64,000 bases of DNA from an uncultured Granulicella sp. (lineage in GTDB: Bacteria > Acidobacteriota > Terriglobia > Terriglobales > Acidobacteriaceae): positions 1,845,518 through 1,909,517 of the forward strand of contig OZ243923.1 in NCBI GenBank assembly GCA_965213835.1, read 5' to 3'. Below are positions 4,242-62,772 of the stretch, one piece after another. Position numbers and translations under genes: made by a program. A model generated the notes under the pieces. The model had not been told where the DNA came from. It worked only from the letters and a program-made list of their open reading frames with translations, and did no database searches. Each line of letters begins with the position of its first letter. Positions within the stretch are counted from its first letter, which is position 1.

Positions 4242-4430
4242 CTATTTCGAATTGCGGCGAGCCCGGAAGCGAGCGCGCGCGGAAGCAAACAAGGCACCGG
4301 CGGTCCCGACCAGGCCCAAGACGACTGTAGGATTCTCGGGTGAGTTCACACATCCACCCTGAGCATGCAAGGGCAGGGCAACAGCGAAGAGGGCAGCAGC
4401 AGCGAAAAGCAGGACGGAAGACTTCTTCAT
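4242..4430 (-). CDS. PExPT-CTERM / XrtJ-associated TM-motif-TM small protein (62 aa)
   Basis: MKKSSVLLFAAAALFAVALPLHA|QGGCVNSPENPT-VVLGLVGTAGALFASA-RARFRARRNSK: signal peptide, GCxxSPENPT motif, TM helix, Arg-rich tail; start taken at MKK (4430). Confidence 0.85.
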   Translation of the reverse strand: MKKSSVLLFAAAALFAVALPLHAQGGCVNSPENPTVVLGLVGTAGALFASARARFRARRNSK

Positions 4431-4554
4431 GGGAAACCTCAAGGGCAAAGTATGGTGCAGACAAAGCCTTGTTGAACCAGGTGAAAGAGGCAGAAGGGCA
4501 GCATTTGATCGGCACTCAATTCCGAAGGAAGGATTGGCTTGCCTGAATCATATC

Positions 4555-7197
4555 CTACTCCGGTCCCCGCGCGGAGGTTAATCCTGCGCTCGCCAAAGCT
4601 TGCGCTCCGGCGGCATCCGCGTGGGTCAGCAGCCAGGCGCGCAGGTTCGGCTCCTGCGTTTTGCGCAGGCGAATGCAGTCGTCGATGCTGTCAAGCGCCT
4701 TGGTCAGGGCACGGTCCGCGGCTTCGACCGGATGCACCTTGAAGAAGCTCTGCACCTGGTCGCGGCCTTCCACCGTGCAAAAGGACCCGAGCGACGAGAC
4801 AAACTGCGAACCGGAGCCGGTAGTCAGTTGTGCCTTTACCGCACCCCAGTGCGCCTGCACCCAGGGCCAGGCTACGTCGCGGGTCTGCGTCTGCGAGAGC
4901 TCGATGGCGATCAGTACCCAGGAGTCCTGGTTACGCACCTGGCCGGAGGTCGCGTACTCGAGTGTGCTCGTTACAAGCTCCGGCCGGCGAAACTCGGCGA
5001 GTGTTTCCAGCGATTCGGTCTGCAGCCCGGGATCAGTCGCCTTCTGGCTGACCAGCTTAAGTCGGTCGTAAAACTCCTGGTCTCCGTTGGCCGCGGCCAG
5101 CACCACGGACGCATCGACCAACCCGTCGTCATCCAGCTTCTTGCCGCTCAACAGCTCATTGACGATGGTTTTCGATTCAGCGATCGCGGCCGGGTCGTCC
5201 GCCGCCCCGAGCGCCTGGAACAACTGCGCGCGGATCTGCTGGTGCTCGTACGGCTCATCGGGACCAGCCGGTTTCGCGTAATTGGCCCAGACCTGGTTGA
5301 GTTGCCGGCGCAGGATCGCGTTCAGCTGAGTCTTCTCCTCCGCAGTCGCGATGCGCGTGCGAACTGTCGAGATATCGTCCAGCGCCGTGCCCAGGATGAA
5401 TGGATTCGGATCGGATTTGACCGCAAAGGCGAGATCAAGAAAGGTGCCGACCTTTTCCATGCCGGCCCGGGTCAGCGCCCAGCGATCTCCCAAAAAACCG
5501 ACCCGCTCGGGCACCGTCAGGCCGGTTTCCACCTGGGCCGTAATGCTCCGGAGCTGTTCCGGCGTGTACGCGACGCGGAAATAGCCCTTGTCACCCGCGT
5601 CGGGAAAAAAGAAGGGTGCGCCGGCAACAGGATTGACGGCAACAACATCACGCGGAAGCAGCGTGCAAACGGGCCCGGAGGAGCTTTTCTGGCAGACCGG
5701 CAGCGTCCAGCCGACCGAGACATCGTTCGCCATCAGCTGGTCGTTGGTGTGACCGCCCAGAAAGAAGCGCGTCTGGTGAACTGGATAGCCGGCACCCTCC
5801 TTATCACCGAAGGTCAGGAGCGGAACCCCGGGCTTATCGACAAAGGAAGACATCACCTTATCCACCGGCTGATGACTGGTCGAGGTCTGCGCGTTCCAAA
5901 AGTCTTCCGCGGTCGCATTGGCGTACAGATGGGCTGCCAGGTAATTATGAACACCCTGGCGGAAAACCTCCGGGCTCACGTACTGCTCCACCATGCCGAT
6001 GACCGCACCGGCCTTGCCGTAGGAGATACCGTCGAACATCTCCTGGATCTGCGCGGGCGTGTCGGCCGTGGCGCGGATGGTGCGCGTGGTGCGGGCCGCA
6101 TCCAGGTTCAGCGTGCCGTCGAGTTCGTCGGCCACGTCCTGCGGGAAATGCCACTCCGGGTGCCACTCACCGGCGGCCTTGTCCTGCATCCAGGTAGCGA
6201 ACCCCTCGTTCAGCCACAGATTGTCCCACCACTGCATGGTTACCATATCGCCAAACCACTGGTGCGCCATCTCATGGGCGACCACCGAGGCTACGCGCTT
6301 CTTCGCCCCGACGCCGCCATCCTTGTCATCGACCAGAAGCTCGGTTTCGCGGTAGGTAATCGCGCCGAAGTTCTCCATGGCGCCGGCCTCGAAGTCAGGG
6401 ATCGCAATCAGGTCCAGCTTCGGCATGGGGTACTTGATGCCGAAGTAGGTGTCGTAATAAGAGAGGAAATGCTCGGCCGCGGAGAGAGCGAACGGCGTGA
6501 GTTTGATCTTGTCCGGCGTGGAGCATACGCGAATCGGCACGGAATCCGCAGAGCCGGAGGTACATTGGAAGTCTCCGACCAGGAAGGCCACCAGGTAGGT
6601 GGACATGCGTGGCGTGGTCGCGAAGGTAAAGGTGTGCTTCGGCCCGGCCGGGCTGTCGGAGATTACGTTGGTGTTCGAGATAGCCGTGTCGCCGGCGTCC
6701 ACGGTAAGCGAGATGTCGAAGGTAGCCTTGAGAGCCGGCTCGTCGAAGGACGGAAAAGCGCGGCGAGCATCGGTGGCTTCAAACTGGGTCACGGCGTAGT
6801 TGCGGGCCTTGGTCTTGGACAGGTAGAAGCCGCGCAGCTTGTCGTTCAGAACACCGGTATATTCCACCAAAAGCGTGCTGTGGCCGGCCGGCAGCGGCTT
6901 CGGGAAGGTGAAGGTCGCCTGCTCTTTCGCCGGATCGTAGCTGACGGTGGCGGTCTGACCGCCAGTGGTGACACGATTGATCCTCAACTCCGCGGCATTG
7001 AGCACGATCGAGGCGGAAGGCGCAACAAGCGTAACATCCAGCGTTTCCGAGCCGGTAAAGCTGGCAGCCGCAATGTCCGGCGTCAGATGCAGGGCGTAGT
7101 GGTCCGGCTTGACGTTGGCGGGAAGGCGCTGGGCCGAGGCAACGGCAATGACGGCAAGAGCGGAGGCGGCAAACAGGCGGGCGAAACGGAAAGTCAT
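4555..7197 (-). CDS. pepN: Secreted M1 family aminopeptidase (ERAP1-like C-terminal domain)
   Basis: GAMEN exopeptidase motif; HEMAH-x18-E zinc motif (HEMAHQWFG...NEGFA); signal peptide ASA|Q. Confidence 0.9.
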   Translation of the reverse strand: MTFRFARLFAASALAVIAVASAQRLPANVKPDHYALHLTPDIAAASFTGSETLDVTLVAPSASIVLNAAELRINRVTTGGQTATVSYDPAKEQATFTFPKPLPAGHSTLLVEYTGVLNDKLRGFYLSKTKARNYAVTQFEATDARRAFPSFDEPALKATFDISLTVDAGDTAISNTNVISDSPAGPKHTFTFATTPRMSTYLVAFLVGDFQCTSGSADSVPIRVCSTPDKIKLTPFALSAAEHFLSYYDTYFGIKYPMPKLDLIAIPDFEAGAMENFGAITYRETELLVDDKDGGVGAKKRVASVVAHEMAHQWFGDMVTMQWWDNLWLNEGFATWMQDKAAGEWHPEWHFPQDVADELDGTLNLDAARTTRTIRATADTPAQIQEMFDGISYGKAGAVIGMVEQYVSPEVFRQGVHNYLAAHLYANATAEDFWNAQTSTSHQPVDKVMSSFVDKPGVPLLTFGDKEGAGYPVHQTRFFLGGHTNDQLMANDVSVGWTLPVCQKSSSGPVCTLLPRDVVAVNPVAGAPFFFPDAGDKGYFRVAYTPEQLRSITAQVETGLTVPERVGFLGDRWALTRAGMEKVGTFLDLAFAVKSDPNPFILGTALDDISTVRTRIATAEEKTQLNAILRRQLNQVWANYAKPAGPDEPYEHQQIRAQLFQALGAADDPAAIAESKTIVNELLSGKKLDDDGLVDASVVLAAANGDQEFYDRLKLVSQKATDPGLQTESLETLAEFRRPELVTSTLEYATSGQVRNQDSWVLIAIELSQTQTRDVAWPWVQAHWGAVKAQLTTGSGSQFVSSLGSFCTVEGRDQVQSFFKVHPVEAADRALTKALDSIDDCIRLRKTQEPNLRAWLLTHADAAGAQALASAGLTSARGPE

Positions 7198-7309
7198 GGA
7201 GTTCCTTGCGCGTGAAGATGCGGCAACACTGCTTTTGAAAGACTACCTGTTGACGCCCGGCACGCACGAAGGATTGCTGTGGGGGCGTGAAAAAATCCGG
7301 AGCGGGCCA

Positions 7310-8089: not shown

Positions 8090-8103
8090 GACGCGAGGCG
8101 ACT

Positions 8104-9168: not shown

Positions 9169-9174
9169 TCCTCT

Positions 9175-9984: not shown

Positions 9985-10065
9985 GCTCGACTCCTCTCCA
10001 TAACTATACGATCATCGACGAAGGGCGTTTATCGACGTAGAGCGCCCACGTCGTCTTCAGGGCTG

Positions 10066-11613: not shown

Positions 11614-11667
11614 AGGTGTCCTCGTGCAAAATATTAAGGGACGATGTGACAGCGTTGTAGGACCAGA

Positions 11668-12579: not shown

Positions 12580-12588
12580 TCTCCCTTG

Positions 12589-14078: not shown

Positions 14079-14084
14079 GCGTAC

Positions 14085-23841: not shown

Positions 23842-25689
23842 ATGGCAAATGAATCCATTCCCGACGACCACCACCGCCTGTCCGACGGACGCAACGAACT
23901 CGGCGAAGGTTTTGAACGGCCGGTTCCCCGGGAAGATCGCGATCTGGGCGCGAACTTCGCCCGGCGCAACGCATCCGACGGCCCGTCGCTCGGCGAAGAG
24001 TTCGCAGACTCATCCGTTACCGATGAACGGTCGCTCGGCAGCGCCTTCGCCGATCCCAACTCGCTCGACGACACCAGGCTCGGCAGGAGCTTTGAGGAGA
24101 CCAACTCGAGCGCGAAGAAGCGTCACCGTCCCGTGCTGCAAACGGTGGAAGCTCCGTTCAAAAAACCCGGTTCCAGGAAAGTAATTTTCATCGTCGCTGC
24201 CTGCGTGCTCTGCGCCATGCTGCTGGCACTGATCGTCGGCTTCCTTCCTCGGCATAAGAACCGCAAGGAGACGGAGGACCGGGCGAAGCAGGAGAACGAT
24301 GCCAAGCCGGTCGTGGAAGCTGTGCGCGTCCAGCCAGCGACCAAAGGTGCCGGACTCACGGTTCCCGGAACCACCATTCCGCTGGTCGAAGCACTGGTCT
24401 ACGCACGTGCGACCGGCTACCTCAGCAAGCGATACGCCGATATTGGCGACCACGTCCACAAGGGCCAGCTCCTGGCCCTCATTGACGCGCCCGATCTCGA
24501 TCAGCAGGTCGACCAGGCACGCGAGCAGCTACGCCAGGCAGAGGCGCAGGAAGCGCAGCAGGAGACGCAGCTTGCCCTGACCAAGGTCACCGTCGACCGC
24601 TACCGCGTCCTGGTCGCCAAGGGTGTTTTCTCCCGCCAGGATGGCGACCAGCAGGAGACCAACTACCAGGCCCAGCGCGCCAACGTCGCCTCCGCCGTGC
24701 GCAACGTTGAAGCCTTCCGCGCCAACCTGCGCCGGGCCATTGCATTGCAAAGCTTTGAACGCGTAACCGCACCCTTTGACGGCGTAGTGACGCAACGAAA
24801 CGTCGACGTGGGGGCGTACATCTCCACCGCGGGCTCCGGAGGCTCCTCCACGCCGACCCCCATGCAGACCTCCGGCACCACCAACGGAAGCTCCCAGACC
24901 GCGGGCCAGACCAATACCTCCGGCTCCTCCGGCAGCGCGAACACGCTGGCGACGCCAACCACCGGAGGCTCCTCCGGCGGTCCGTTGTTCTCGGTTTCGC
25001 AGGTGGATCGGCTGCGCATCCTGATCAGCGTTCCGGAAGGCTATGCCTCCATGGTCGCTCCCCGGCAGCATGCCAGCCTGCACTTCCAGGAGTTTCCCAA
25101 CCAGGACTTTTTCGGCAATGTCACCCGTACCTCGGCCTCCATCGACCAGAACAGCCGTACGTTGTTGACAGAGGTGCAGGTGGACAATCACGCGGGCCAT
25201 CTGCTCTCCGGCATGTATGCGGTCGTCACCTTTGCTCCCCAGCCGCAATCCTCTCCCGGCAACACGGGCAACGCCTCCACCCAGACCGGGCCGGTCGTCA
25301 TCTCGGGCGATGCGATCGCCGTGCGCAATGACATGCCTACCGTCGCGCTCATCAGTCCCAGCGGCGTCGTGCATCTGCAGCCCGTAGTGCTTGGCCGCGA
25401 TTTCGGCTCCGAGGTCGAGATCATGTCCGGCGTCAAACCTGGTGACCTGATCGCCGCTACCTTTACCGATGACGTGCAGAACGACACAACGGTGACGCCG
25501 CAGGAAAACAAGAAAGATGGGCAGAACAGCAGCCCGAAGCAGCCTCCGCCGCAGAACACGCCTCCTGGCGGATCCACGCAATACGGCAACCCGGGCATGG
25601 AGGACCAGAACATGCAGGGCCAGATGGGCAAGCCGGGGCAGAAAACCGGCGGCAAAAAAGCCGCGCCCAGCAAGGCAGGCAAGCAGTGA
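23842..25689 (+). CDS. RND periplasmic adaptor (MFP) with repeat-containing N-terminal extension
   Basis: TM anchor, ARATGYL...DIGDHVHKGQLLA lipoyl half, coiled hairpin, APFDGVVT, RTLLTEV, GMYAVV. Confidence 0.88.
   Translation: MANESIPDDHHRLSDGRNELGEGFERPVPREDRDLGANFARRNASDGPSLGEEFADSSVTDERSLGSAFADPNSLDDTRLGRSFEETNSSAKKRHRPVLQTVEAPFKKPGSRKVIFIVAACVLCAMLLALIVGFLPRHKNRKETEDRAKQENDAKPVVEAVRVQPATKGAGLTVPGTTIPLVEALVYARATGYLSKRYADIGDHVHKGQLLALIDAPDLDQQVDQAREQLRQAEAQEAQQETQLALTKVTVDRYRVLVAKGVFSRQDGDQQETNYQAQRANVASAVRNVEAFRANLRRAIALQSFERVTAPFDGVVTQRNVDVGAYISTAGSGGSSTPTPMQTSGTTNGSSQTAGQTNTSGSSGSANTLATPTTGGSSGGPLFSVSQVDRLRILISVPEGYASMVAPRQHASLHFQEFPNQDFFGNVTRTSASIDQNSRTLLTEVQVDNHAGHLLSGMYAVVTFAPQPQSSPGNTGNASTQTGPVVISGDAIAVRNDMPTVALISPSGVVHLQPVVLGRDFGSEVEIMSGVKPGDLIAATFTDDVQNDTTVTPQENKKDGQNSSPKQPPPQNTPPGGSTQYGNPGMEDQNMQGQMGKPGQKTGGKKAAPSKAGKQ
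23896..24120 (+). repeat. Five 15-aa (45-bp) degenerate tandem repeats xLGxxF in the MFP N-terminus
   Basis: ELGEGFERPVPREDR / DLGANFARRNASDGP / SLGEEFADSSVTDER / SLGSAFADPNSLDDT / RLGRSFEETNSSAKK. Confidence 0.75.
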
Positions 25690-27719
25690 AGCCGTGGTTC
25701 GCATTCGCCTTCGTCACGGCGGCGGCGGCCGCAGCCGGTGCGCAGACCGCACCGGTTCAGCAGTCCACTCCGCCCGCGGCCACGCCGACAGCTCCCGACA
25801 TTCCGGACGTCCCACCCATCACTCCCCTTACTCCGGACGTACCTACCGCCCTGACCGGATCCCCAACGACCGTGCCTGCGCGTTCCGCTCCGGAAGGTCT
25901 GGTCCCCCGGCACTTCTTCGGACCGTATCGCCGTCCGGTAGTGCCTCCGCTGTTTGCCGGCAACGGCACGCGGCTACGCAGCCTGGTGCGAGACGGAAAG
26001 CTGTACCTCAGCGCACGCGAGGCCATCGCGCTGGCGATTGAAAACAATCTCGACGTCGAAATCGAACGCTACAACCTGTTGCTGGCCGACACCGACCGCC
26101 TCCGCGCTGCTGGCGGAGGATCCCTGCGCGGCATCGACTTCAACGTGGAAGAGCCGCCCAACGGCGTCGGAGGTCCAGGTTCTCCGCTGCTCAACACCAC
26201 TGTTACCAATCCGAATCCAACCACGCCAGCCGTTACCGACCTGACCAGCCTCAACAGCACCACGCAGCTCCAGACCAATCTTTCCGGCACTTCGACAGCC
26301 ACCGCGCAGTACGCCAACGGACCGCAGATCCCGCTGTTCGATCCCAACCTGTTCCTGCAGGCAGGCTATCTGCGGCGCTCCAACACCGTATCGCTGGTGC
26401 CCGAGGGAACCGCGACAGGCGACAGCCAGCCGCAGCCGCTGGATTTTGTCGCCTTCAATTTCTCCTACGTCGAAGGTTTCCATCCCGGCACGCAACTGGT
26501 CGCCACCGTCAACAACGATTCGTCCGTGATCTACGGCATGAGCTCTTCGGCCGACCCGTTTTCGCGGCCCAGCACCTCCGTCACCTTGTCTCAGCCCTTG
26601 CTGCGCGGACGCGGGTCGGACGTGAACACGCGTTTTATCCGCATCGCGAACGAGAACCGCAAAATCGGTCACCTCCTGTTCGAGCAGCAGGTGCTCGAAA
26701 CCGTCTATGGCGTTTCCCGTATCTACTTCGACCTGGTCAGTCTGGGGGAAAACGTCCGCGTCAAGCAGGAAGCGCTGAACGCGGCCAAGAAGCTGCGCGA
26801 CGACGACTCCCAGCAGGTCATCGAAGGCACGCTCGCCCCCATCGAGCTCACGCGCGTCTCTGCCCTGGTCAGCTCGTCGGAGTTCGACCTCATTCAGGCG
26901 CAGGGCCTGTACCAGACCCAGGAGGTCATCCTGCGCAACCAGCTTCTGCGCGCGGATTCGCCCATCTTTGCTGCCGCATTCACGGAGATTGTGCCCACCG
27001 ATACGATCGTTGTGCCGGAGCTTCTGCCCGGCACGCCCGTTCCCGATCTCATCCAGCAGGCGCTCGCCCGCCGGCCCGACCTCGCGCAGTCCCAGCTGCA
27101 GATAGAGACCGGCGAAATCCAGGTCCAGGGCAGCCGCAACCAGGCGTTGCCGCAGCTCAACGCCTACGTCAACGTCGAAACGCGCGGCTCGTCCGAGCAA
27201 TCGTATGACCAGCTCGGCACCGCCGGCACCGGCATCCCAACCCTCCCACTCAACTTCGGGCTGGGCGGCCTGCGCGTCTCCACCATCGTCCAGGGAGGCG
27301 TCCAGCTCAATCTCCCGTTGCGCAACCGCGTCGCCGAGTCCGACGCCGCGCGCGACACCATCCAACTGCGCGAAGTGCAGGCCCGCACCGAGAAGCTGTC
27401 CAACCAGATCCGCCAGAATATCGAGGCCGCCTCCGTCGCGCTCGACACCTCCTTTGCCGCCTACAAGGCCGCGCGTTCCAGCCGTGGGTACCAGGAGCAA
27501 CTGCTCGCCGCCGAGCGCGACAAGCTGGAGTTCGGCCAGTCCACCCCGCTGCAGGTCGTGCAGGATCAGGCTTACCTGAGTCAGGCAAAGTCCACTGAGA
27601 TCGCCGCCCGCTCCAACTATCAGAAGGCGCAGATCGAGCTCGACCGCACCCTCGGCGACCTGCTCGAAAAAAACGGCATCACCCTCGAAGACGCGGTACA
27701 AGGCCAGCTGAATCCGTAG
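25686..27719 (+). CDS. TolC-family outer membrane efflux protein
   Basis: Signal peptide, LSAREAIALAIENNLD, RRPDLAQ, FGQST.LQVV; GTGA overlap with the MFP stop. Confidence 0.85.
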   Translation: MKPWFAFAFVTAAAAAAGAQTAPVQQSTPPAATPTAPDIPDVPPITPLTPDVPTALTGSPTTVPARSAPEGLVPRHFFGPYRRPVVPPLFAGNGTRLRSLVRDGKLYLSAREAIALAIENNLDVEIERYNLLLADTDRLRAAGGGSLRGIDFNVEEPPNGVGGPGSPLLNTTVTNPNPTTPAVTDLTSLNSTTQLQTNLSGTSTATAQYANGPQIPLFDPNLFLQAGYLRRSNTVSLVPEGTATGDSQPQPLDFVAFNFSYVEGFHPGTQLVATVNNDSSVIYGMSSSADPFSRPSTSVTLSQPLLRGRGSDVNTRFIRIANENRKIGHLLFEQQVLETVYGVSRIYFDLVSLGENVRVKQEALNAAKKLRDDDSQQVIEGTLAPIELTRVSALVSSSEFDLIQAQGLYQTQEVILRNQLLRADSPIFAAAFTEIVPTDTIVVPELLPGTPVPDLIQQALARRPDLAQSQLQIETGEIQVQGSRNQALPQLNAYVNVETRGSSEQSYDQLGTAGTGIPTLPLNFGLGGLRVSTIVQGGVQLNLPLRNRVAESDAARDTIQLREVQARTEKLSNQIRQNIEAASVALDTSFAAYKAARSSRGYQEQLLAAERDKLEFGQSTPLQVVQDQAYLSQAKSTEIAARSNYQKAQIELDRTLGDLLEKNGITLEDAVQGQLNP

Positions 27720-32773: not shown

Positions 32774-34335
32774 TCACTTTCGGCCTGTCCACTTCACCCC
32801 CGGCCGAGCGACCGCATACATCTCGCTGCCGATCTGGTCGAACAAGCCGCGCTCATCGTTGCCCACCCGATACAGGTCGAAGTGACTCCGTCCCGGCAGA
32901 TAGCTGAAGTGCGGCTCCGCGCCCAGCTTCGCCAGACGAGCCTCAAACAGGTGCGCCGACCCATCCAGGTAGAACGTGTCCGCCGTCCCGACAAACAGGT
33001 GAATCCGCCCGCGCAGCATCGCTCCACGCTGTGCCCAGGTGCGGTCGACGATGTTTGCCAGGTCATAATGCGCGCCCCAGTACGCGACCACCTGCGGGTC
33101 GACCGCGCCAGTCGCACGATCGAACATCGGCATGGGTGCCCCATTCTCTCCGCGCGGAGAAAACACCCAGTCGAACGACGCAAACTGCCCGCCGTACGGA
33201 CCGATCACCTCTTCCAGCTGCGCAAACGGCTTGATATAGGAAACCACTTTTCCATTCATACGCATGATTGGGTAGAGCTGCCCATCCGGCCTGGTGTACA
33301 CGTTTGCGCTCGACGCATACAGGTCCGGACCGGTGAAGTTGTGGAAGTCCGAAGGATCGGGCGAGGTCGACCACGTCCCCCCAAAAACTGCGGATAGTTC
33401 ACTTCCAGCTGCAGCGTCGCCCATCCGCCGGAGCTGTGGCCGTTCAGAAATCTTCCCGACGGACGCGCGTCCATGTGGTAGCGCGCTTCCAGCATCGGAA
33501 TGTACTCCGCCGTCAGCGCCGTGCCCCACGGCCCATTGTTCACCGAATCCGCAAACTCATGCGTGCCGTGCGCACACGATTCGTCCAGCATGACCCAGAT
33601 CATCGGAGGCATACGTCCGTCCAGCATGCGCCTGCGAATCTCGATCCCCTGCGACAGACCGCTGGTCAATCCGCCGCCAAAGCCCGCCGTGTAGTATGCC
33701 GTCGGATAACGTTGCTGCGGGTGTTCGGCATATCCCGGCGGAAGCACCACGTCCGCCTGCACAAAGGTCGGCGTCCCCCAGAACCGCGTCAGCGCCGGGC
33801 TCTCGAACCGTTGCAGCTCGATCTCCCCAGGCTTCACCGCATCCTGCAGCTTCGCTCGCAGGGCCGTCAGCCGTGGGTCGGGCGTCGGATGCTCATTGAG
33901 TGTCAGCGTCGTCTCAGCCGGAGCCACGGCCGCTACCGCGCTCACCCAGTCCTGCGGCCCCCGCCCCGAGTAGTTGTAAGAGTGATTTGTATCCAGCACC
34001 GCCTGCGCCTCATACGTCCCGGCGGGCATGGCGCTCAACGATCCCGGATACATCGCCGTGCCGCCGCCCGCCTCGCTCTCTACCCGCACCGACTCGCCCG
34101 GCCGAAGATCGTGCACCTCCAACGCCCCGACCCACACATCTTCCGGAGTAAACTCCGCTGCGCTCACCTCCTTGTCGCCCGCGCCCTTCTTCGCAAACAC
34201 CAGCAGCCGCCCGCTCACCGGCCCCGCAGCCGCCGCACCCAGCTGAACCGTAAACCCCGGCCGCGACGACGGCGAACCCTGCCCCAGCGCCACGGCACTC
34301 ATCACTCCCAAAGCCACAATCGCAATCGTCTTCAC
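32774..34335 (-). pseudogene. Secreted putative esterase (alpha/beta hydrolase) split by a single frameshift
   Basis: 5' ORF 33256-34335 has signal peptide and GHSSGG nucleophile elbow; continues as FGGTWSTSPDP in ORF 32774-33529; shift at the T5G6 run (+ strand 33377-33387). Confidence 0.75.
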
Positions 34336-35989: not shown

Positions 35990-37540
35990 ATGTCCGTAAA
36001 ATTGCAAGCCTGCTCCGCGTTGGTAGCGCTGCTTGGAGCCCTCGCGACCGGCTTCGCCCAGCAGCCCATTCTCATCGATGCCCACGCCCCCGCCACCCCG
36101 TTCCCCCACTTCTGGGAGCAGATGTTCGGCTCCGGCCGCGCCAACCTTGTGCTGCGCCAGGCATACCAGGACGATCTTCACGCCGTTCACGGCATCACCG
36201 GCGTCCAGTACGTCCGGGGTCATGGCATTCTGGACGACGAAAACGGCGTCTACACCGAAGACGAACACGGCAACGCGGTCTATAACTTCGCCTATGTCGA
36301 CCAGATTTACGACGCCATGCTGAAGCAGCATGTCCGTCCCGTCGTTGAGCTCTCCTTTATGCCAAAGCGCCTCGCCTTCAACCCCGACGCGCTGCATCCG
36401 TTCTGGTACAAGCCCAATGTCAGCCCGCCCAAATCCTGGCAGCGCTGGGACGCCCTGATCACTGCGTTGGCACAGAACCTGATCGCTCACTTCGGGGCAG
36501 ACGAGGTCGCGCAGTGGTACTTCGAGGTCTGGAACGAGCCCAATATCGACTTCTGGGGAGGCATCCCGCGCGACCAGTCCTACTTCGAGCTGTACGACCA
36601 CACCGCCCGAGCCCTCAAGGCCGTAAGCCCACGGCTCCAGGTAGGCGGCCCGGCCACCGCCGCCGCGGACTGGGTGGAAGCATTTCTCGCCTATACCAGC
36701 CAGCACAAGTCCCCGGTCGACTTCGTCAGCACGCACGGATACGCGAACGACTCCATCGACAACCTCTTCCCCGCAAATCAGCAGCTTCACATGCCGCGCC
36801 CCGCTCCCGATACCCCCTCCGATGAGCGCGTCTGCCTCGCCGTGCACAAAGTGCGCGCCCAGATCGATGCGGCGGGCCGGCGCGACCTGCCGCTCTTCTG
36901 GACCGAGTGGAACGTCGAAGGCGAATCGGAGGCCTTTGATACCACCTTTGTCGGACCGGGGCTGGCCAACACGATCCGCCAATGCGACGGAGCCGTAACC
37001 ATGATGAGCTACTGGACACTTTCCGACGTGTTTGAGGAAGGCGGTCCCATCCCTCGTCCATTTCTTGGCGCCTTCGGCCTGCGTGCTTCCTTCGGCATCA
37101 ACAAACCCTCGTTCTACGACTTCGCCCTGCTCCACAAGCTTGGCTCCCAGCGTCTGGCAAACGCCTCGCCGGATATCCTGGTTACCCGCGAGTCGGACGG
37201 CGGCCTCGTCGTCGCGGTCTGGAACATCGTCGATCCTGCGCCGGACGGGCAGCCCTCCTCGTTGCTCCACGCCGCCTCGCGCACGTTGACTCTGGACCTC
37301 CGGAACGTCGCAGCAAACGCCTCCGTCACCATCGAGCGCGTCGACAATGAACATGGCAACGTTCTTCCCATTTACAAGCAGATGGGCAGCCCGCAATACC
37401 CCACCCCCGCGCAGGTTGAACAGCTCAACCGCGCCACCGCCCTGCCGCCGCCTGAGCAGACTCGGCTGAACCATGGCAAACTGGAGCTGACCCTCGAACC
37501 CAATGCACTTGCTCTGATTCACATCCCGTCCTCGCGTTAA
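35990..37540 (+). CDS. Secreted glycoside hydrolase family 39 (beta-xylosidase-like)
   Basis: Signal peptide GFA|Q; YVRGHG, PVVELSFMP, EVWNEP (acid/base), GGPA, WTEWN (nucleophile), MSYWTLSDVFEE. Confidence 0.85.
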   Translation: MSVKLQACSALVALLGALATGFAQQPILIDAHAPATPFPHFWEQMFGSGRANLVLRQAYQDDLHAVHGITGVQYVRGHGILDDENGVYTEDEHGNAVYNFAYVDQIYDAMLKQHVRPVVELSFMPKRLAFNPDALHPFWYKPNVSPPKSWQRWDALITALAQNLIAHFGADEVAQWYFEVWNEPNIDFWGGIPRDQSYFELYDHTARALKAVSPRLQVGGPATAAADWVEAFLAYTSQHKSPVDFVSTHGYANDSIDNLFPANQQLHMPRPAPDTPSDERVCLAVHKVRAQIDAAGRRDLPLFWTEWNVEGESEAFDTTFVGPGLANTIRQCDGAVTMMSYWTLSDVFEEGGPIPRPFLGAFGLRASFGINKPSFYDFALLHKLGSQRLANASPDILVTRESDGGLVVAVWNIVDPAPDGQPSSLLHAASRTLTLDLRNVAANASVTIERVDNEHGNVLPIYKQMGSPQYPTPAQVEQLNRATALPPPEQTRLNHGKLELTLEPNALALIHIPSSR

Positions 37541-41903: not shown

Positions 41904-41990
41904 ACTTCTAGAATAACCTGTCTCGCCAACCATCACAGCAGGACGGCATCTTCACTTGTTGGCCTCCCGAAGCGATCTGCGCCCGTCGCC

Positions 41991-42755
41991 CTAACGCCCC
42001 GGCTTCACCAGCCTGATCTCAAACACAGTCGGCCACTGCTTCCCCGTCACAAACAGCCGGTCGCCTTTTTCGTCATAAGCGATCCCGTTCAACACACTTT
42101 CCGCGTTGATCTTCTGCGAATCAGGCAGGATCCCCTTCAGGTCGATCCACCCCACCACCTTGCCGTCTTTGGGCGAAATCCTCGCAATCCGATCCGTATG
42201 CCATACATTCGCATACACCTCGCCCTTCACCCACTCCAGCTCGTTCAGGTCCTTGATCGCGTGCTCGCCGTCGTGCACCACCACATACCGCTTCTCCGCA
42301 AAGGTCTCCGGATCGCGAAATCGCAGCGTCGCAGATCCATCGCTGGTAATCAGTTCCTTCGCATTCCGCGTCATCCCCCATCCTTCACCCGAGTAGGAAA
42401 ACTGCCGAACCAGCCGAAACGAAAACCGGTCATACACAAAGCCCTGGTGCGTCTGCCACGTCCACTGGTACATATTCGGCCCAACGTTCACGATCCCCTC
42501 GCCGAACAGCGAAGCAGGCAGATCCGCTTCCTGCACGGTTTTGCCTGTAGCCACCTCGGTCGCCAGCAGCCCGGAGTGCCCGGTCAGCCCCGTCCCCTCA
42601 TAAAACATCCCGTTCAGGTATAGGAATCCTTCGGTATAGCTCTGCGTCGAATGAGGATACGTCTTCACGACCTGATACCCATACACCGGCACCTGCGAGC
42701 ATCCCGCCAGCACCCCCATCACCCAAACGCAAACCAACCCCGCCATCAATCGCAT
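41991..42755 (-). CDS. Glutaminyl-peptide cyclotransferase (plant/bacterial beta-propeller type), lipoprotein
   Basis: Lipobox LAG|C; YTEG, FGEG, EGWG, NELE, NGIA motifs. Confidence 0.88.
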   Translation of the reverse strand: MRLMAGLVCVWVMGVLAGCSQVPVYGYQVVKTYPHSTQSYTEGFLYLNGMFYEGTGLTGHSGLLATEVATGKTVQEADLPASLFGEGIVNVGPNMYQWTWQTHQGFVYDRFSFRLVRQFSYSGEGWGMTRNAKELITSDGSATLRFRDPETFAEKRYVVVHDGEHAIKDLNELEWVKGEVYANVWHTDRIARISPKDGKVVGWIDLKGILPDSQKINAESVLNGIAYDEKGDRLFVTGKQWPTVFEIRLVKPGR

Positions 42756-42777
42756 ACAAAACACTGTACACATCTCC

Positions 42778-42866
42778 GTGCCCCATTCATCGCAGCCTCA
42801 CCGCGATGAGTGGGTCGATCACCACCTCCGTGCCCCATTCACCGCAGCCTCACCGCGATGAGTGGG
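42778..42866 (+). repeat. Tandem pair of REP-like palindromes (52-bp period)
   Basis: gtgccccattca(t/c)cgcagcctcaccgcgatgagtggg at 42778-42814 and 42830-42866. Confidence 0.85.
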
Positions 42867-42916
42867 TCCACTCCATCCTTCCCCCTATCACACCCCACTC
42901 GCAATAAAATAGACCC

Positions 42917-52998: not shown

Positions 52999-54927
52999 TT
53001 ACTGAGCCGCCGGCCTCGGCACCAGCGGTTTGGTGATCTCGTCCATCAAGTCCGGCGTGCCGTCCACCCGCTTCAGCATGGGGTAGCGCTGGCCTTCGTG
53101 CCAGTCCAGGATCACCTCCGCGACATCCGATTCCATCTGCACGATCAGCCGGATCGGCTTGTCGTTGCCTTTGGAATCGTCGATGGCCTGCCGCACGGCA
53201 TCGGCTGAAAACGAATTGCCATTGACTCCCAGAATCCTGTACCCCGGCCCGAGCTTTGCCTTGTCGGCCGGTCCATTCCACCGTACATCGGTCACGGTGC
53301 CATCGGCCGAAACCCGGAAACCCAGTGAATACCACACATTGAGCCCGCTCGACCGCCGCGAGCCCGCCGCGGCCAGCATGCGCTCACTCACATTCGGCGT
53401 CTCGGTGTAAACCAGCTCATAGCCGCCGCGCTTGATGCCATCCAGATCGGTATGCTGTGTCGGCACGTCGATGTGCTCATGCAGGAAGGTGGCCCAGTCG
53501 TATTTGACCACATCGTTCAAATCGCGGATCAGTTCCTTGCGGTCGTAGGTCACGATCAGCGGACCTGTATCGCCGCCTTTGCCGAGAAAGATGCGCTGGA
53601 AGTCCGTCAGCGATTTCTGCCCATTGGTCAGCGTGCGGATCAGCGTATCGGCATCCAGCCACAGCAACTCGCCTTCCTGGTAATACGCCTGCCCGCGCTC
53701 CCAGTTGCCCCAAAGCAGAGGGTGCCGGTCGATCGAGCTCGCGATCGCCGTGTCCTCGGTCGAACGCCAGTAGCGTCCCGGCTCGTTGTCCAGCGATGCC
53801 GCCGACAGCGCCAGCATGTCGCGGTACTGCGCCTGGTTCTTCAACCCGGAACGCGCCGCCAGCACATTGCCCATGTACTGCGTCATGCCTTCATACACCC
53901 AAAGCAACTGACCCTGCTGCGGCGTGGCGAAGTCCGGCTCGTACAGCTTGTCCGGCCGGCGATATTTGCCGTTCCAGCTATGGGTAAACTCATGCGCCAG
54001 CAGGTCGGAGTCGCCCAGCTGCCCGGCCTGGGAAACAAACGCCTTCTCGCCCACGCCGTTGTCGGACGACTGCCCATGCTCAAGGCCCTCGCCGCCCGCG
54101 ATGTCGGAAAGAGTCAGGAGAAAGTGGTAGCTGTTGTAGTGATGGCTTGCGTACGCCGTTCCCGCCTCCCGCACCAGGTTCGAAATCTCTTCCAGGAGCT
54201 GCGGACGCAGATCGCTGTCCCCGGGCAGGTCGCTTGCAACATCGATGTAGTGCTTCGGCGTCACCTCCGGCGCGAGCGGAAACTCCCGCAGATATTTGCC
54301 AGCCAGCACCGGGCTGTCTTCGAGTTGCTCCACATCGGTGACCGCGTAGTGTGTCGTCACAGCCCCGTCGGTGGGATGGTGATCGTCCTCGAGCACCCCC
54401 GTGACCGGAGGCGGCGCGCCTGTGCCAGTCGGCGTCAGCGCCGTGCCGATCGCCCATCCCGCAGGCACGGTCACGCTGGGCTGAATCGCAATCTGCTTCA
54501 CCGGGATGTGCGCCGGGTACAGCATCAGGCGCTCCCATTCCAGGCATGCCATCTCCCGGCTTACGCGCGAGTTGACCAGCGCGTCCACATGGGCGTGCAC
54601 GCTCAGCACCCCGGCCGGAACCTCCAGGTGAAACTCGTACAGGTTCACGTCGTCGCGACGCCACTGCAGCGTCTGGCCGTTCGCGGTAAAAACCACGCCG
54701 GTAATCGAAGCCGCCGGACCGTTCGGCGCATGGTCGCCCGGAATCCACTGCGGGCTGATAAACGTGACCGCCCCCGGTTTCACGGGCAGGTCGATCTCCG
54801 CATGGAACAGGTGCCGCGGCGCCTCGGAAAGATCCGCGGTAATCATGATCGGCGTCTTCTGTGCCGAAGCAAACGGAAGTACGGCAATGGCAAACAGGGC
54901 AGCGGGCAGCGTTCTCAGGATGGGCAA
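52999..54927 (-). CDS. Secreted M61 family metallopeptidase with C-terminal PDZ
   Basis: WIPG, GGEGLEH..S, HEFTHSWNGKYRRP, LWVYEG; PDZ-like GPADKAKLGPG. Confidence 0.88.
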   Translation of the reverse strand: MPILRTLPAALFAIAVLPFASAQKTPIMITADLSEAPRHLFHAEIDLPVKPGAVTFISPQWIPGDHAPNGPAASITGVVFTANGQTLQWRRDDVNLYEFHLEVPAGVLSVHAHVDALVNSRVSREMACLEWERLMLYPAHIPVKQIAIQPSVTVPAGWAIGTALTPTGTGAPPPVTGVLEDDHHPTDGAVTTHYAVTDVEQLEDSPVLAGKYLREFPLAPEVTPKHYIDVASDLPGDSDLRPQLLEEISNLVREAGTAYASHHYNSYHFLLTLSDIAGGEGLEHGQSSDNGVGEKAFVSQAGQLGDSDLLAHEFTHSWNGKYRRPDKLYEPDFATPQQGQLLWVYEGMTQYMGNVLAARSGLKNQAQYRDMLALSAASLDNEPGRYWRSTEDTAIASSIDRHPLLWGNWERGQAYYQEGELLWLDADTLIRTLTNGQKSLTDFQRIFLGKGGDTGPLIVTYDRKELIRDLNDVVKYDWATFLHEHIDVPTQHTDLDGIKRGGYELVYTETPNVSERMLAAAGSRRSSGLNVWYSLGFRVSADGTVTDVRWNGPADKAKLGPGYRILGVNGNSFSADAVRQAIDDSKGNDKPIRLIVQMESDVAEVILDWHEGQRYPMLKRVDGTPDLMDEITKPLVPRPAAQ

Positions 54928-55548: not shown

Positions 55549-55675
55549 GTTGAAAGCCTACAAGACTCTCGCGCCGAACTCCAGCATCCTTTGTGTCCGG
55601 CGCCAGCACCCCTGTTCCAGCCGCCAAGAATCCCGAGTGAGTTTGCATTTGACAGGCGTAGTATTAGTTCTTGCC

Positions 55676-57541: not shown

Positions 57542-57550
57542 GGATCGCGC

Positions 57551-58153: not shown

Positions 58154-58213
58154 AGAGCAAACAAACGGCCCACCCCCTCGCAGGAATGGACCGTTTCCTC
58201 GCTGCGATCGGCT

Positions 58214-60073
58214 CTATTGTTCGAACGGAACGCTGGCTCCCCACAGGATCGTCGAGCTGGTGGGACCGTTTGCCCCCCACAGGATCGTCGAACTGCTGGT
58301 CCCGGACGCACCCCAAAGGATTGTTGCCGCGGCTGGCGTCCCCGCGCCCCACAGGATGGTGGAACTGTTCAGTGCGGAAAATCCGGAAGGATCGCTTGCG
58401 CCCCAAAGGATGGTCGCACCCCACAGGATCGTCTGCCCGTTGACCGAGCCGACCACCGCGTTCTGCCCATAGACTGCGCCGGCACCCCAGAGAATTGTCG
58501 CCCCCCACAGAATGGTCGAGTCGCCCACCAGCGTCGTCTGCCCGGTCTGCGCGTTGTAGACCGCCACCGGACTCATCGCCGTACCTACCGGGTAACTCTT
58601 GAGAGCGGTCTTGGAAACGTCGGAAATGGTGTTGCCGATGTCCAGGTAGCCCGCGCCGATGGTGAACACGTCATAGTTCGCCTTGTACACGTTGCCGCTC
58701 GCGGGATCGGTCACGCTGGAGGTCAGCGGGAACGTCGTCTTGTTCGCATCCCGCATCAGAAACGCCTTGGTCTGGTCCGGCGTCAGCGCCGGAAAGGCCT
58801 GTAGCATCAGCGCCACTGCCCCGCTGGTCACGCCCGCGGCCATGCTGGTGCCGCTCAGTGGAAAGTAGTTCGGGCTCGCCTGGGAGTTGCCGTTGACCAC
58901 GTAAAACGCATTCTGCGTGATGAAGCTGGGATTGTTGACCGCGAGCGGATCGTTGGCAAACTTGAGGCTCGTGACCAGGTTGCCCGGCGCGACGATATCC
59001 GGCTTGCTGATATTGTCGATAAAGCTCGGCCCCTTGGAGCTGTAGGAGGCGATCTGATCGTCGTTGATCGCAGCCGTACCCATGGTCTTCATCGCGCCCA
59101 CGGTCAGCACGTACGGATCGTTGCCCGGAGCCTCGATCGTGCCGTAGCCTTCGGCGTTCATGTTCAGGTCGCGCCCGGCGTTGCCCGCCGCCGCCACCAC
59201 CACGATGCCCGCCTTCCATGCCTGCTCCGCCGCCTGGCACAGCGGGTCCTGCTGATACGACTCCCAGATCGGACGGCCAAGCGACAGGTTAATCACGCGG
59301 ATGTTGTACTGCTTCTTCAGCGCAATCGCCTGCTCGATGGCCGCGATTACCGCCGAATCCGTGCCGTTGCCGTTCCCATCCAGCACCCGCAGGTTCAGCA
59401 GGTTTGCGTTTGGAGCGACTCCGGAGAAGGTCCGGCTGTACCCATATCCGGACGAATCCGCGCCATTGCCCGCGATCAGCCCCGCCACATGTGTTCCGTG
59501 GCCGAACGCGTCGGCCGTCGTCGTGTCGCCCGGCACAAAGCTCTGGTTGTAGACCACGCGGCTCAATCCGTACGGGCGCCTCAGGTATCGGCCGTACGGC
59601 GGGCCAAGGTCGTCGACCGTGTTGATGCCGCTGTCGATTACGGCCACGCCTACGCCCGTGCCATCGATCCCGGCGTTCCAAACGGGCGCGGCGTTGATCG
59701 GCTCGGTCGTATACTCCGCCGCCGTGACAGTGACCTGCTGGCGCGCCGCCAGCGAGTGGTCGAGCGACACATGCGCAATGTTTGCGTCCGCGGCAAGCGC
59801 CAGCAGCGCGCCGGCCGGCACATGCGCAACGCTGGATCGGATGGAGTGCAGGTGCCTGTGCAGCACGCCGCCCAGGCTGCTCAACCGTTGGTCCTGCACG
59901 CCGCCAGGATCCTGGACATACTGGATAATCACGGGCACGGGCCTGGACGGATCGGCCGCGGCGAGATCGGCGGAAAGCTTGCTCTTCGGCCCGCCGGGGA
60001 ACTGCGCAAGCGCAGCGGCGGGCAGCAGGGAACACATCAGGACGGCAGCAATACGGAACGGGGGAGCATTCAT
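58214..60073 (-). CDS. Secreted S8 (subtilisin) serine protease with C-terminal TILWGA repeats
   Basis: Signal ALA|Q, prodomain, VAVIDSG (D), GHGTHVAG (H), AAGN (oxyanion), GTSMAAG (S). Confidence 0.92.
   Translation of the reverse strand: MNAPPFRIAAVLMCSLLPAAALAQFPGGPKSKLSADLAAADPSRPVPVIIQYVQDPGGVQDQRLSSLGGVLHRHLHSIRSSVAHVPAGALLALAADANIAHVSLDHSLAARQQVTVTAAEYTTEPINAAPVWNAGIDGTGVGVAVIDSGINTVDDLGPPYGRYLRRPYGLSRVVYNQSFVPGDTTTADAFGHGTHVAGLIAGNGADSSGYGYSRTFSGVAPNANLLNLRVLDGNGNGTDSAVIAAIEQAIALKKQYNIRVINLSLGRPIWESYQQDPLCQAAEQAWKAGIVVVAAAGNAGRDLNMNAEGYGTIEAPGNDPYVLTVGAMKTMGTAAINDDQIASYSSKGPSFIDNISKPDIVAPGNLVTSLKFANDPLAVNNPSFITQNAFYVVNGNSQASPNYFPLSGTSMAAGVTSGAVALMLQAFPALTPDQTKAFLMRDANKTTFPLTSSVTDPASGNVYKANYDVFTIGAGYLDIGNTISDVSKTALKSYPVGTAMSPVAVYNAQTGQTTLVGDSTILWGATILWGAGAVYGQNAVVGSVNGQTILWGATILWGASDPSGFSALNSSTILWGAGTPAAATILWGASGTSSSTILWGANGPTSSTILWGASVPFEQ
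58235..58516 (-). repeat. Eight TILWGA hexapeptide repeats
   Basis: Identical at protein level with synonymous codon variation; spacers of 0 to about 17 aa. Confidence 0.95.
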
Positions 60074-60242
60074 GATTAACCTCTGGAGATGAACTGCCTA
60101 CCTCATCGGTGCGGGCCCGGGGTCGTTCGCCGTCTTCTGCTTCCCTGTTGCAAAGCCGCCTGCCCGGACGTGGCAGGAGCGGCAGCTCTGAACTCGGGTC
60201 TGGAGACGGATCGTTCTTCAGTCCGGGTCTGAGACTATCGGG

Positions 60243-60255
60243 AAGTGCCGCACTT
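60243..60255. promoter_or_regulatory. Perfect 6-1-6 palindrome, candidate operator upstream of the S8 gene
   Basis: aagtgc-c-gcactt in the 231-bp intergenic region. Confidence 0.35.
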
Positions 60256-60304
60256 TGTCCTTCCCTAAAAGTTGTAATCGGGGTAACCACCGTGGGACAC
60301 CCGT

Positions 60305-61120
60305 CTACTCGAAAGCGGCATCGTGAAGACGCCTCACCTGACCCGGCTTAACCGGCAGCGCACGCAGCAGCGCGTCGAGCGCCGGCGTGTGCCCCCGGGC
60401 ATCGCTCAGCGAGCCCACGGCCACCTGTTCCACCAGCCGGCCACTGTCCAGCACCGCAAGCTCATCACACAGCTGCAGCACGGAAAGCAGGTCGTGCGAG
60501 ATATACAGGAGCGCGGCCCCGGTAGAGCCGCACATCCGGCTCAGCAAGAGAAGCAGCTCCGCCTGCGTCACCGGGTCGAGCGCGCTGGTGGGCTCATCGG
60601 CGATCAACACCGCCGGCCGGTGCAGAAGCGCCAGCGCGACCAGCACACGCTGCGCCTGCCCCACGCTGATCGCCCCGGGACGCCGCGCCAGGAACTCGGG
60701 ATCCTCCGGCAGCCGAAGCTCCGGCAAAAGCTCTCGCAGCCGTGCCTCCAACGCCGCCGAACCTCCCGCGTCGTGCGCCTTCCAGCTTTCGAGAAAATGC
60801 GCTCGCAGCGAAACCGCCCCGTTCAACGCCGACATCGGGCTTTGCGGCACCAGTGCGATCCTGCGTCCGCGCACGGTGCGTGCCTCCCGCTCCGGCATCC
60901 GCAGCAGGTCCGTGCCTTCCAGCAGCACCTGTCCCCTCGCCCACCCGCCCCGCCAGCCCAGCAGCCCCAGCAGCGCCAGCGCCAGCGTACTCTTGCCGGC
61001 ACCGCTGGACCCCACAAAGCCGAGCGCCTGCCCGGCCCGGAGCTCGAATCGGACCTCATCGAGCACGGTGCGCACGCCATACCCGGCGGAAAGCGCAACC
61101 TGCAGCGGAGCCACGCTCAC
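60305..61120 (-). CDS. Peptide/nickel-family ABC transporter ATP-binding protein
   Basis: GSSGAGKS, ISVGQAQRV, LIADEPTSALD, ISHD; GTG start overlaps the SBP stop (GTGA). Confidence 0.9.
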   Translation of the reverse strand: MSVAPLQVALSAGYGVRTVLDEVRFELRAGQALGFVGSSGAGKSTLALALLGLLGWRGGWARGQVLLEGTDLLRMPEREARTVRGRRIALVPQSPMSALNGAVSLRAHFLESWKAHDAGGSAALEARLRELLPELRLPEDPEFLARRPGAISVGQAQRVLVALALLHRPAVLIADEPTSALDPVTQAELLLLLSRMCGSTGAALLYISHDLLSVLQLCDELAVLDSGRLVEQVAVGSLSDARGHTPALDALLRALPVKPGQVRRLHDAAFE

Positions 61121-62772
61121 CGGCCCGCGTCCACGCGGCGCAGGAACTCGACGTTCCACACCAGGTTCGGCTGCAGAAGCGCTGGCTGCACTCCAAGCAG
61201 CGCCGGAGAAACCGCAACCAGCGGGTCGGGATACACCAGGTAGATATACGGCTGCTGATCGGCCACGATCTGCTGCACCCGGTCCACGGCCTGATGGCGC
61301 ACGCGCGGGTCCAGGCTGGTCGCCTGCAGCTGCATCGCGCGGTCGATCTCCTCCTCCCATGCGGTCTCGGGGCTCTTCTGCGCAGGATCCCACTGGTGAT
61401 CGGGTGACGAACTGAGCCACTCATTCATCATCGAGTTCGGATCGGGATCCGCGTCCGGATGCCCAAGCAGGCACGCCTCGTAGTTGTGCGTATGGCTCAG
61501 GCGCTCAATCAACGCCGGAAAATCCAACGTCACGACCGTGACCTCAATTCCCACCGCGAGGAGGTCCTGCTGGATCAGCACGGCCATCTTCGCCCGGGAG
61601 GCGTTGCCGGCGTTGGTCAGGATGGAAAAGCGCACCGGGTGCCCGCCGCCATCCACCAGGGTTTTGCCTCGCATCTGAAAGCCGGCCTCCCGCAGCAGAC
61701 GAAGCGAGTTCGCCGTGCCTTCAGGCGGCGTGCGCAGCCCCGCGTTATACCAGGCCCGGTTCGCCGGCGAGATAAACCCCGCCGCCACCGTCGCATGCCC
61801 GTCATAGGCGATCCTCGCCAGGTCCGCGCGATCGATCGCCGAGGAGACGGCCACGCGAAATGCCTGCGCCCGAAACCAGGCGCGCTCCCACTCCGGCAGC
61901 GGCGCGTCCGGAGCCTGGTTGAACCACATCTGCTCGGTGTTGAGCGAAGCGCCGAGATCGCGTGCCGTACCGGGTCGTCGCTCGTTCAATACCGCGAACG
62001 AGCCCGGCGACAGATTGTCGATCAGGTCGTACTCCCCCCGCAGAAACCGCAGCAGCTCGGTCTCGCGGTTGCCCAGCACGTCCAGCCGGATCGAAGGGGC
62101 ATACGGAAGCTGCGCGCCGGCGTTGTCGTGCCCCCAGAAATATGGGTTGCGCACAAGCCGCACGAACTGTCCGGGCTGCGCCTCCGCCAGGGTGAACGGG
62201 CCGGAGGTGACGCGCGAAAGCCTCGCTTGCCCGGCCGGCTCGATCGCGATCTCATCGAAGACGTTGGCGATGCCGATTACCCGTCGTGGAAGCAGCACGC
62301 GCAGCGTCCGGGTATCGGGAGTTTCGACCCGCACCTCCGCCGGCGCGAGAAACTCCTCCGCCACCGGAGCCGCCGTCGCAGGCAGCAACACGCGCCGCAG
62401 GGACGCCGCCGCGTCGGCCGAGGATAACGCCGTGCCATCGGAAAACCGAAGACCCGGGCGCAGATTCAGCGTAATCGCTCGCCCATCCGGTGCGATCGTC
62501 CAGCTCTCCGCAAGCGCCGGCTCCGGCTGCATCGTCCTCCGGTTGTACCGGATCAACACCCCTGCCGTGAGCGTTCGCAGCAGCTCGGAGGTTGCGTCCT
62601 CCACCCTGGCGGGGTCCAGCGTGCGCGGGTCGGTGCGGATCGCCCACGCCAGCTCTCCCGGCGGACGCGGCGCGGCCGCCTGCGCACCCGCCACCACCGC
62701 GCCGCGAAGCGCGACAAGCAGAAGAACGAGCTTGAAAACCTTCTTCACTGCAGACGATTTTCGCATGGCCAC
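61117..62772 (-). CDS. ABC transporter substrate-binding protein, family 5 (peptide/nickel)
   Basis: Signal AGA|Q; DPRTLDP, ALAESW, LRPGLRFSDG, SGPF, FRVAVSSAIDR. Confidence 0.9.
   Translation of the reverse strand: MAMRKSSAVKKVFKLVLLLVALRGAVVAGAQAAAPRPPGELAWAIRTDPRTLDPARVEDATSELLRTLTAGVLIRYNRRTMQPEPALAESWTIAPDGRAITLNLRPGLRFSDGTALSSADAAASLRRVLLPATAAPVAEEFLAPAEVRVETPDTRTLRVLLPRRVIGIANVFDEIAIEPAGQARLSRVTSGPFTLAEAQPGQFVRLVRNPYFWGHDNAGAQLPYAPSIRLDVLGNRETELLRFLRGEYDLIDNLSPGSFAVLNERRPGTARDLGASLNTEQMWFNQAPDAPLPEWERAWFRAQAFRVAVSSAIDRADLARIAYDGHATVAAGFISPANRAWYNAGLRTPPEGTANSLRLLREAGFQMRGKTLVDGGGHPVRFSILTNAGNASRAKMAVLIQQDLLAVGIEVTVVTLDFPALIERLSHTHNYEACLLGHPDADPDPNSMMNEWLSSSPDHQWDPAQKSPETAWEEEIDRAMQLQATSLDPRVRHQAVDRVQQIVADQQPYIYLVYPDPLVAVSPALLGVQPALLQPNLVWNVEFLRRVDAGR

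Follow-up and report, generated by a model that had tools for sequence, protein, structure and literature searches.

Glutamine after the predicted signal peptides of an Acidobacteriaceae bacterium: a probable Q-rule outside Bacteroidetes, with two predicted exported glutaminyl cyclases

The DNA considered here, a stretch of 64,000 nucleotides (contig OZ243923.1, positions 1,845,518 to 1,909,517; hereafter the window), belongs to a Granulicella-like soil member of the Acidobacteriaceae whose genome is a single contig of 3.73 Mb with 62.7% guanine plus cytosine (GC) and 3018 called genes. It encodes nine exported proteins whose predicted signal peptidase I (SPase I) sites all lie directly before a Gln residue, along with a glutaminyl cyclase (QC), a combination that recalls the Q-rule of Bacteroidetes, in which most SPase I substrates carry Gln at position +1. 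The window was analysed with a home-made codon-bias gene caller and signal-peptide heuristics, giving 48 genes. The features at issue are as follows (the arrow marks the predicted cut):

1..525, minus strand: 5' part of a gene of 397 amino acids (aa), the remainder of which lies left of the window; predicted SPase I substrate, MKWLPSFFFVAIASAVG↓QSADV
4242..4448, minus strand: exosortase-J-target-like protein, 68 aa; MPLRFPMKKSSVLLFAAAALFAVALPLHA↓QGGCVNSPENP..., the signal ending ALPLHA↓QGGC
4555..7197, minus strand: exported M1 aminopeptidase (PF01433, PF17900, PF11838); ...AVIAVASA↓QRLPANV
25686..27719, plus strand: TolC-like outer membrane efflux protein (OEP; PF02321); ...TAAAAAAGA↓QTAPV
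33256..34335, minus strand: putative esterase (PF00756); ...VMSAVALG↓QGSPSS
35990..37540, plus strand: GH39 glycoside hydrolase (PF01229); ...LGALATGFA↓QQPILI
41991..42773, minus strand: type I (plant-type, beta-propeller) glutaminyl cyclase (PF05096, Glu_cyclase_2, E 8.5e-96)
52999..54927, minus strand: exported M61 glycyl aminopeptidase with a PDZ domain (PF05299, PF17899); ...AIAVLPFASA↓QKTPIM
58214..60073, minus strand: secreted S8 subtilase (PF00082); ...SLLPAAALA↓QFPGGP
61117..62766, minus strand: family-5 solute-binding protein (SBP_bac_5; PF00496); ...RGAVVAGA↓QAAAPRP

An earlier note on this DNA had claimed that all nine non-lipoprotein secreted proteins of the window start with Gln. 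Each N-terminus was re-read, and all nine are as described, the first Gln that follows the hydrophobic core being directly preceded in each by a pair of residues compatible with the (-3,-1) rule; the family names given in that note (M1, TolC, esterase, GH39, M61, S8, SBP) also agree with Pfam. No further SPase I type signals were found among the 48 called genes, the remaining hydrophobic N-termini of the window being those of polytopic membrane proteins, of a lipoprotein (579-2495) or of cytoplasmic false positives. Taking the motif rate of about 20% seen among signal-like N-termini of negative-control genomes, the chance of nine out of nine is about 5e-7.

Two of the nine sites have rivals. 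The product of the gene at 1..525 could also be cut at ASA↓VGQ, and in the solute-binding protein at 61117-62766, whose site is the most doubtful of all nine, AGA↓QAAAP and AQA↓AAPRP are equally good. For the M1 aminopeptidase, a predictor blind to the +1 residue chooses the same cut before Gln. Two points weigh against our reading of the window: all cleavage sites are heuristic predictions, and the +1-blind chooser cuts two to five residues upstream, at another AxA in the Ala-rich hydrophobic region, in seven of the nine proteins. Such alternative sites would be expected if the pattern were an artefact of Ala-rich signals in a high-GC genome combined with sites picked by eye, an explanation also favoured by the fact that about 10% of internal 28-residue stretches hold the motif by chance. 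We consider it very improbable, having tested and rejected it with the +1-blind chooser, a homology-defined set of proteins and two control genomes of similar or higher GC content, as detailed below.

The pattern extends to the whole genome. In a set of 780 N-termini that combine a positive n-region with a hydrophobic core, the first strongly polar residue after the core is Gln in 274 (35%, where composition predicts 12.8%); of these Gln residues, 78% obey the (-3,-1) rule (19-52% for other polar residues), with Ala at -1 in 174 of them. When the +1 residue was tabulated against background with a chooser blind to it, Gln was the top residue (23-33% versus 3.7% in the proteome, an enrichment of 7-9-fold; 88 of 341 in one count, binomial p 1.5e-47), which argues against an artefact of site choice. 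That share is a lower bound, because in Ala-rich signals the chooser frequently settles on an AxA that comes two residues too soon. Counting the motif [AVSTILGC]-x-[AGS]-Q without regard to any chosen site, we found it in 343 of 656 signal regions and in 185 of 1745 internal 28-residue control stretches (10.6%; odds ratio 9.2, p 7e-98), and no residue besides Gln was enriched more than about 2-fold in this count. The A↓Q signals have a median implied length of 23 residues and Ala at -1 in 80% of cases.

Our first crude predictor admitted many membrane anchors, recognizable by Leu or Val at +1, and a matrix trained by expectation maximization (EM) with the +1 position included, which yields 231 A↓Q proteins, is possibly self-fulfilling; we therefore relied on the site-agnostic motif counts, on a ranking of signal peptides blind to Gln and on a gold set of proteins selected because their mature parts are homologous, irrespective of the signal. 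In the Q-blind ranking the motif occurs in 153 of the 200 best signal peptides (77%) and in 218 of the 300 best, dropping to 14% in the worst-scoring tail, which consists of membrane proteins. The gold set comprises CarboxypepD_reg-type N-terminal domains of TonB-dependent-receptor-like paralogues, collected with jackhmmer from the genome's own proteome. In 40 of these 47 paralogues an [AGS]↓Q lies 4-14 residues before the conserved domain. Leaving out four truncated or mis-started genes and counting two sites that lie slightly beyond the search range brings the tally to 42 of about 43, a result hard to reconcile with an artefact of site picking. Both the best-ranked signals and the gold set lie above the Q-value of about 48% that marks a majority under the Q-rule, the lower bound from the blind chooser standing at 23-33%. 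Heuristically, we estimate that about 65-75% of the SPase I substrates predicted for this genome carry Gln at +1. The secretome-wide pattern that the earlier note had extrapolated from nine proteins is thus recovered genome-wide in the motif excess, the blind chooser and the gold set.

The residue His is also unusually common around these sites. It is over-represented at -2 of A↓Q sites (15%, after Ser with 16%), giving a recurrent xHA↓Q such as the LHA↓Q at 4242-4448, and it is the third commonest first polar residue after the hydrophobic core (15.3%, versus 7.8% of strongly polar residues proteome-wide). Outside the window, a signal of twin-arginine (Tat) type, MDMGRREFLKQAVAAGVAGPAMA↓QKAETN (gene index 1923), ends in A↓Q as well, from which Tat substrates processed by SPase I would seem to follow the rule too.

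Control genomes were run through the same pipeline, each control and each relative being represented by a 200-kb sample and compared with Wilson intervals and Fisher tests. Two such samples of the genome itself gave the motif in 19 of 29 (0.66) and 23 of 37 (0.62) candidates. The corresponding values are 11/49 (0.22) for Escherichia coli K-12 and 22/40 (0.55) for Persicobacter sp. JZB09, a member of the Bacteroidota carrying a type I QC; the pattern is as strong here as in this Bacteroidota control. Against an origin in base composition stand the pSymB replicon of Sinorhizobium meliloti, of similar GC content (63.5%), with 8/45 (0.18) and Glu rather than Gln as the favoured residue, and an acidobacterium of 67% GC that lacks the pattern (G109, described below).

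The QC of the window matches PF05096 over profile positions 20-249 of 249 with 320.6 bits (cut-off 22.3). It is about 50% identical to the enzymes of Zymomonas and Xanthomonas, with full-length matches to the structures from Zymomonas mobilis (3NOL/3NOM; 1.8e-72 for 3NOL), Xanthomonas campestris (3MBR, 3.2e-71), Myxococcus xanthus (3NOK, 3.3e-42) and papaya (2FAW/2IWA, 2.7e-50), and the catalytic Glu, E45 in Xanthomonas, which sits in the FTEG motif, is kept here within SYTEGF. Unlike the crystallised type I QCs, it carries a lipoprotein signal, MCTVFCMRLMAGLVCVWVMGVLAG↓CSQVPVYGYQ, with a canonical LAGC lipobox that can be reached from two upstream ATGs, including one at 42755. The lipid-anchored glutaminyl cyclase that had been proposed at 41991-42755 is thus supported by the full-length PF05096 match and the lipobox. 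The anchor is a property of this copy and not a general trait: in most Acidobacteriaceae the orthologue begins with a signal of SPase I type whose end reads A↓A(P/T)PVYGY, so that it would be exported without being Gln-first, while the Bryobacterales copies carry lipoboxes like the one in the window.

Neither operon context nor sprA-type coupling was seen at the QC gene (window 39661-45838), whose neighbours, two open reading frames at 39661-41903 and a probable DNA helicase at 42917-45838 (GxGKT motif, by eye), appear unrelated to protein export. In another genome of the same family (G188), the type I QC match has an in-frame TAG (G188:C1:243866-244567, minus strand) and may be a pseudogene.

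By itself, the presence of this gene proves little, because bacteria that show no Q-rule, such as Caulobacter, Deinococcus and Corynebacterium, can have plant-type QCs too, a point that weighs against tying the rule to this enzyme; likewise, the crystallised bacterial type I QCs come from organisms without a reported Q-rule. The plant-type QC can in fact be ruled out as the cause of the rule in the genus, since two complete genomes of the same genus, G002 and G004, have no PF05096 match and keep the rule. An alternative QC was therefore sought, and a second cyclase gene was found elsewhere in the genome:

G000:C1:2335908-2336840, minus strand: animal-type (type II, M28-fold) glutaminyl cyclase, 311 aa, outside the window, assigned from structure matches and motifs

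The QC of the window, named in the earlier note, is thus not the only one. The best structural match of the second enzyme is 7D18, annotated 'Peptidase M28' (E 1e-132 over 289 residues, about 70% identity), which we take to come from an Acidobacteriales bacterium and which is reportedly part of a study addressing QC activity among M28 enzymes. Next come human isoQC (3PB4) and QC (2AFM), at 1e-26 to 1e-23, while the relationship to the type II enzymes of Bacteroidetes is only distant (Porphyromonas gingivalis PgQC, 6QQL, E 1e-8). The motifs GANDG, FDDGEEA, SLYGTRHLAAKW, ADMIGD, DDHIPF and WHHTAQD are kept. Among them are the zinc ligands (Asp, Glu, His), the catalytic Glu-Glu pair and the Asp of DDH, all conserved with respect to human QC (residue roles from PMC11312887). 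The second Asp that follows the zinc-binding one in typical di-zinc M28 aminopeptidases is absent, the enzyme having GANDG where the other M28 proteins of the genome have GADDD or GANDD. The protein thus has a mono-zinc M28 fold with QCs as its nearest structures, and cyclase activity is predicted for it. Its signal is of SPase I type, MKGRLLCLLGLSVLPAMA↓LP, predicting a soluble periplasmic enzyme; the orthologue of G008 has a lipobox instead, and those of G002 and G004 have A↓Q signals. Both QCs of the genome are accordingly placed on the periplasmic side by prediction from their sequences.

All 17 genomes sampled from the family encode the type II enzyme, as do G002 and G004, and these include genomes without a plant-type QC, which itself occurs in 11 of the 17. 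Because of this difference, gene content identifies the animal-type enzyme as the predicted family-wide cyclase and the plant-type enzyme of the window as a putative accessory.

Published work gives a mean Q-value of 71% for Bacteroidetes by SignalP (PMC5837995). The rule has been called Bacteroidetes-specific ('exclusively', 'unique among procaryotes'), is explained there by the proteolytic lifestyle of Bacteroidetes, and has Chlorobi, Ignavibacterium and a few cyanobacteria as its only outliers, Acidobacteria being unmentioned (Bochtler et al. 2018, PMC5837995; Szczesniak et al. 2023, PMC10653852). Within the searchable literature, no paper was found that reports either the Q-rule or pyroglutamate-capped exported proteins for Acidobacteria. 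The pattern described here thus lies outside the phylum to which the published rule is restricted. Like the system of P. gingivalis with its PgQC (PG2157), it places Gln at +1 of most SPase I substrates (about 65-75% by our heuristics versus about 71%); it shares with the Bacteroidetes rule the A-x-A↓Q context, an exported or membrane-anchored QC and a peptidase-rich secretome, and it covers periplasmic, outer-membrane and secreted proteins alike. It differs in phylum and in that a single genome combines both QC classes. In the window no sign of a type IX secretion context was seen, although no search was aimed at it. Pyroglutamate, the essentiality of the QC and the stabilisation of proteins are findings from Bacteroidetes. 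We class what is seen here as the Q-rule system of Bacteroidetes occurring in a further phylum.

It therefore seems probable that this member of the Acidobacteriaceae follows the same Q-rule as Bacteroidetes, with two exported QCs expected to form pyroglutamate. Cleavage exactly before Gln would be the simplest way to account for a Gln that regularly follows A-x-A and stands a few residues ahead of conserved mature domains. SPase I cleavage of Sec substrates and of some Tat substrates would then expose Gln at the new N-terminus in roughly 65-75% of cases, and the lipid-anchored plant-type and soluble periplasmic animal-type QCs would convert it to pyroglutamate in the periplasm; we infer both that this cyclisation is enzymatic and which QC performs it. 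By analogy with Bacteroidetes, such capping very probably operates in this acidobacterium as well. With their N-termini blocked, secreted proteins and those of the periplasm and outer membrane would be protected from the cell's own many exported aminopeptidases. The genome encodes a set of exported aminopeptidase-type enzymes, namely the M1 and M61 proteins of the window and nine M28-family matches, most of them with A↓Q signals, and protection from these M1, M61 and M28 enzymes is suggested by the case of P. gingivalis (PMC10653852).

One lineage that fits this mechanism poorly is the acidobacterial family coded f31, represented by complete genomes. In one of these (G055, 67.6% GC; sample G055:C1:1000001-1200000), the motif occurs in 19 of 39 candidates and the first polar residue is Gln in 54%, with sites such as ATA↓QDAKP, LSA↓QIPTK and LVA↓QPKPG. 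PF05096 has no match in eight f31 genomes even at E <= 10, and the type II QC query has none in G055 at 1e-5; the M28 proteins of G055 are all of 455-604 aa and aminopeptidase-like, and themselves have A↓Q signals. This genome is strongly positive though no known QC is detected in it, and so it counts against our interpretation. If the strong rule of f31 does stand without either QC, there would have to be a third, unrecognised QC or a selection on Gln at +1 that is independent of cyclisation.

The latter possibility can be put in general terms: Gln at +1 might mainly reflect a P1' preference of SPase I or an export determinant, with cyclisation incidental or absent. Besides G055, the type I QC itself speaks for this, its signal ending A↓A in most relatives; because of that ending, SPase I must also be able to cut before residues other than Gln. 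We nevertheless regard this explanation as unlikely. The genome keeps two different exported QCs and the whole family keeps type II, the 25-35% or so of good signal peptides without Gln should still be processed, and in Bacteroidetes the same pattern corresponds to pyroglutamate by mass spectrometry and to an essential QC (PMC5837995, PMC10653852).

The rule could also be real while the two QCs serve other substrates, Gln cyclising spontaneously or through an unknown enzyme. N-terminal Gln does cyclise non-enzymatically over days, f31 has the rule without known QCs, and QC presence is only loosely correlated with the rule in our phylum sample. Uncatalysed cyclisation is, however, slow relative to bacterial generation times, and both QCs have intact catalytic residues and export signals that place them where the substrates appear, so that this explanation is quite improbable and capping by the two predicted QCs remains the reading we prefer.

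Of 199 species genomes drawn evenly from Acidobacteriota and scored for both QC types, 29 have both, 30 type I only, 39 type II only and 101 neither; relatives named at the QC loci include Granulicella, Tunturiibacter, Terriglobus and many metagenome-assembled genomes of Acidobacteriaceae. The 200-kb samples of relatives hold 12-51 candidates each and leave out the lineages G104, G150, G194 and G198, which have QC type I only or type II only, as well as further f31 genomes. The clearly positive samples are those of G008, G002 and G188 in the same family, G127 (f52) and G055 (f31). The rule is strong in G188, where a type II QC is present (19/30), and is found in 21/40 candidates in G002 and, more weakly, in 15/39 in G004 (p 0.026), both with type II and without type I. 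Seven samples (G197, G058, G090 with n = 12, G024, G061, G176 and G109) are indistinguishable from the negative controls. Two of these weigh against our interpretation, G058 having both QCs and G197, of the same family, having type II only, and a tight correlation between QC and Q-rule across the phylum, which we had considered, is likewise unsupported by the 200-kb samples. Within Acidobacteriota the rule is lineage-specific, with a patchy distribution.

The genome G109 (f39, 67% GC, no QC; G109:C1:1000001-1200000), with 5/36 and signals that by eye end A↓E, A↓A or A↓K, serves as a negative control within the phylum. Pooling 80 QC-centred loci by taxon was uninformative, as the QC itself, with its A↓A signal, dominated the candidates and the filter failed for the Bryobacterales copies.

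A more far-reaching reading, on which we would place only limited weight, is that Gln at +1 is a widespread diderm trait outside Bacteroidota, repeatedly evolved or lost and partly uncoupled from the two QC families. What is new here is the presence of both QC classes in one genome and of a Q-rule lineage, f31, without either, and these offer handles on the co-evolution of rule and enzyme. The Q-rule is not a phylum marker, and the Acidobacteriaceae, abundant soil bacteria with large sets of secreted hydrolases and peptidases, provide an independent lineage for testing protection against a cell's own aminopeptidases. There is a practical bearing on signal-peptide predictors, on N-terminal proteomics, where blocked N-termini matter, and on producing acidobacterial enzymes in heterologous hosts. 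The view that only oral Bacteroidetes are affected by QC inhibitors is also tempered.

Two further features of the window adjoin the proteins discussed above, one lying outside the scope of the rule as a substrate of signal peptidase II (SPase II) and the other being the neighbour of the 68-aa target-like protein:

579..2495, minus strand: NHL-repeat lipoprotein, SPase II substrate, LLTGC↓G
2520-4184: exosortase (PF09721, Pfam)

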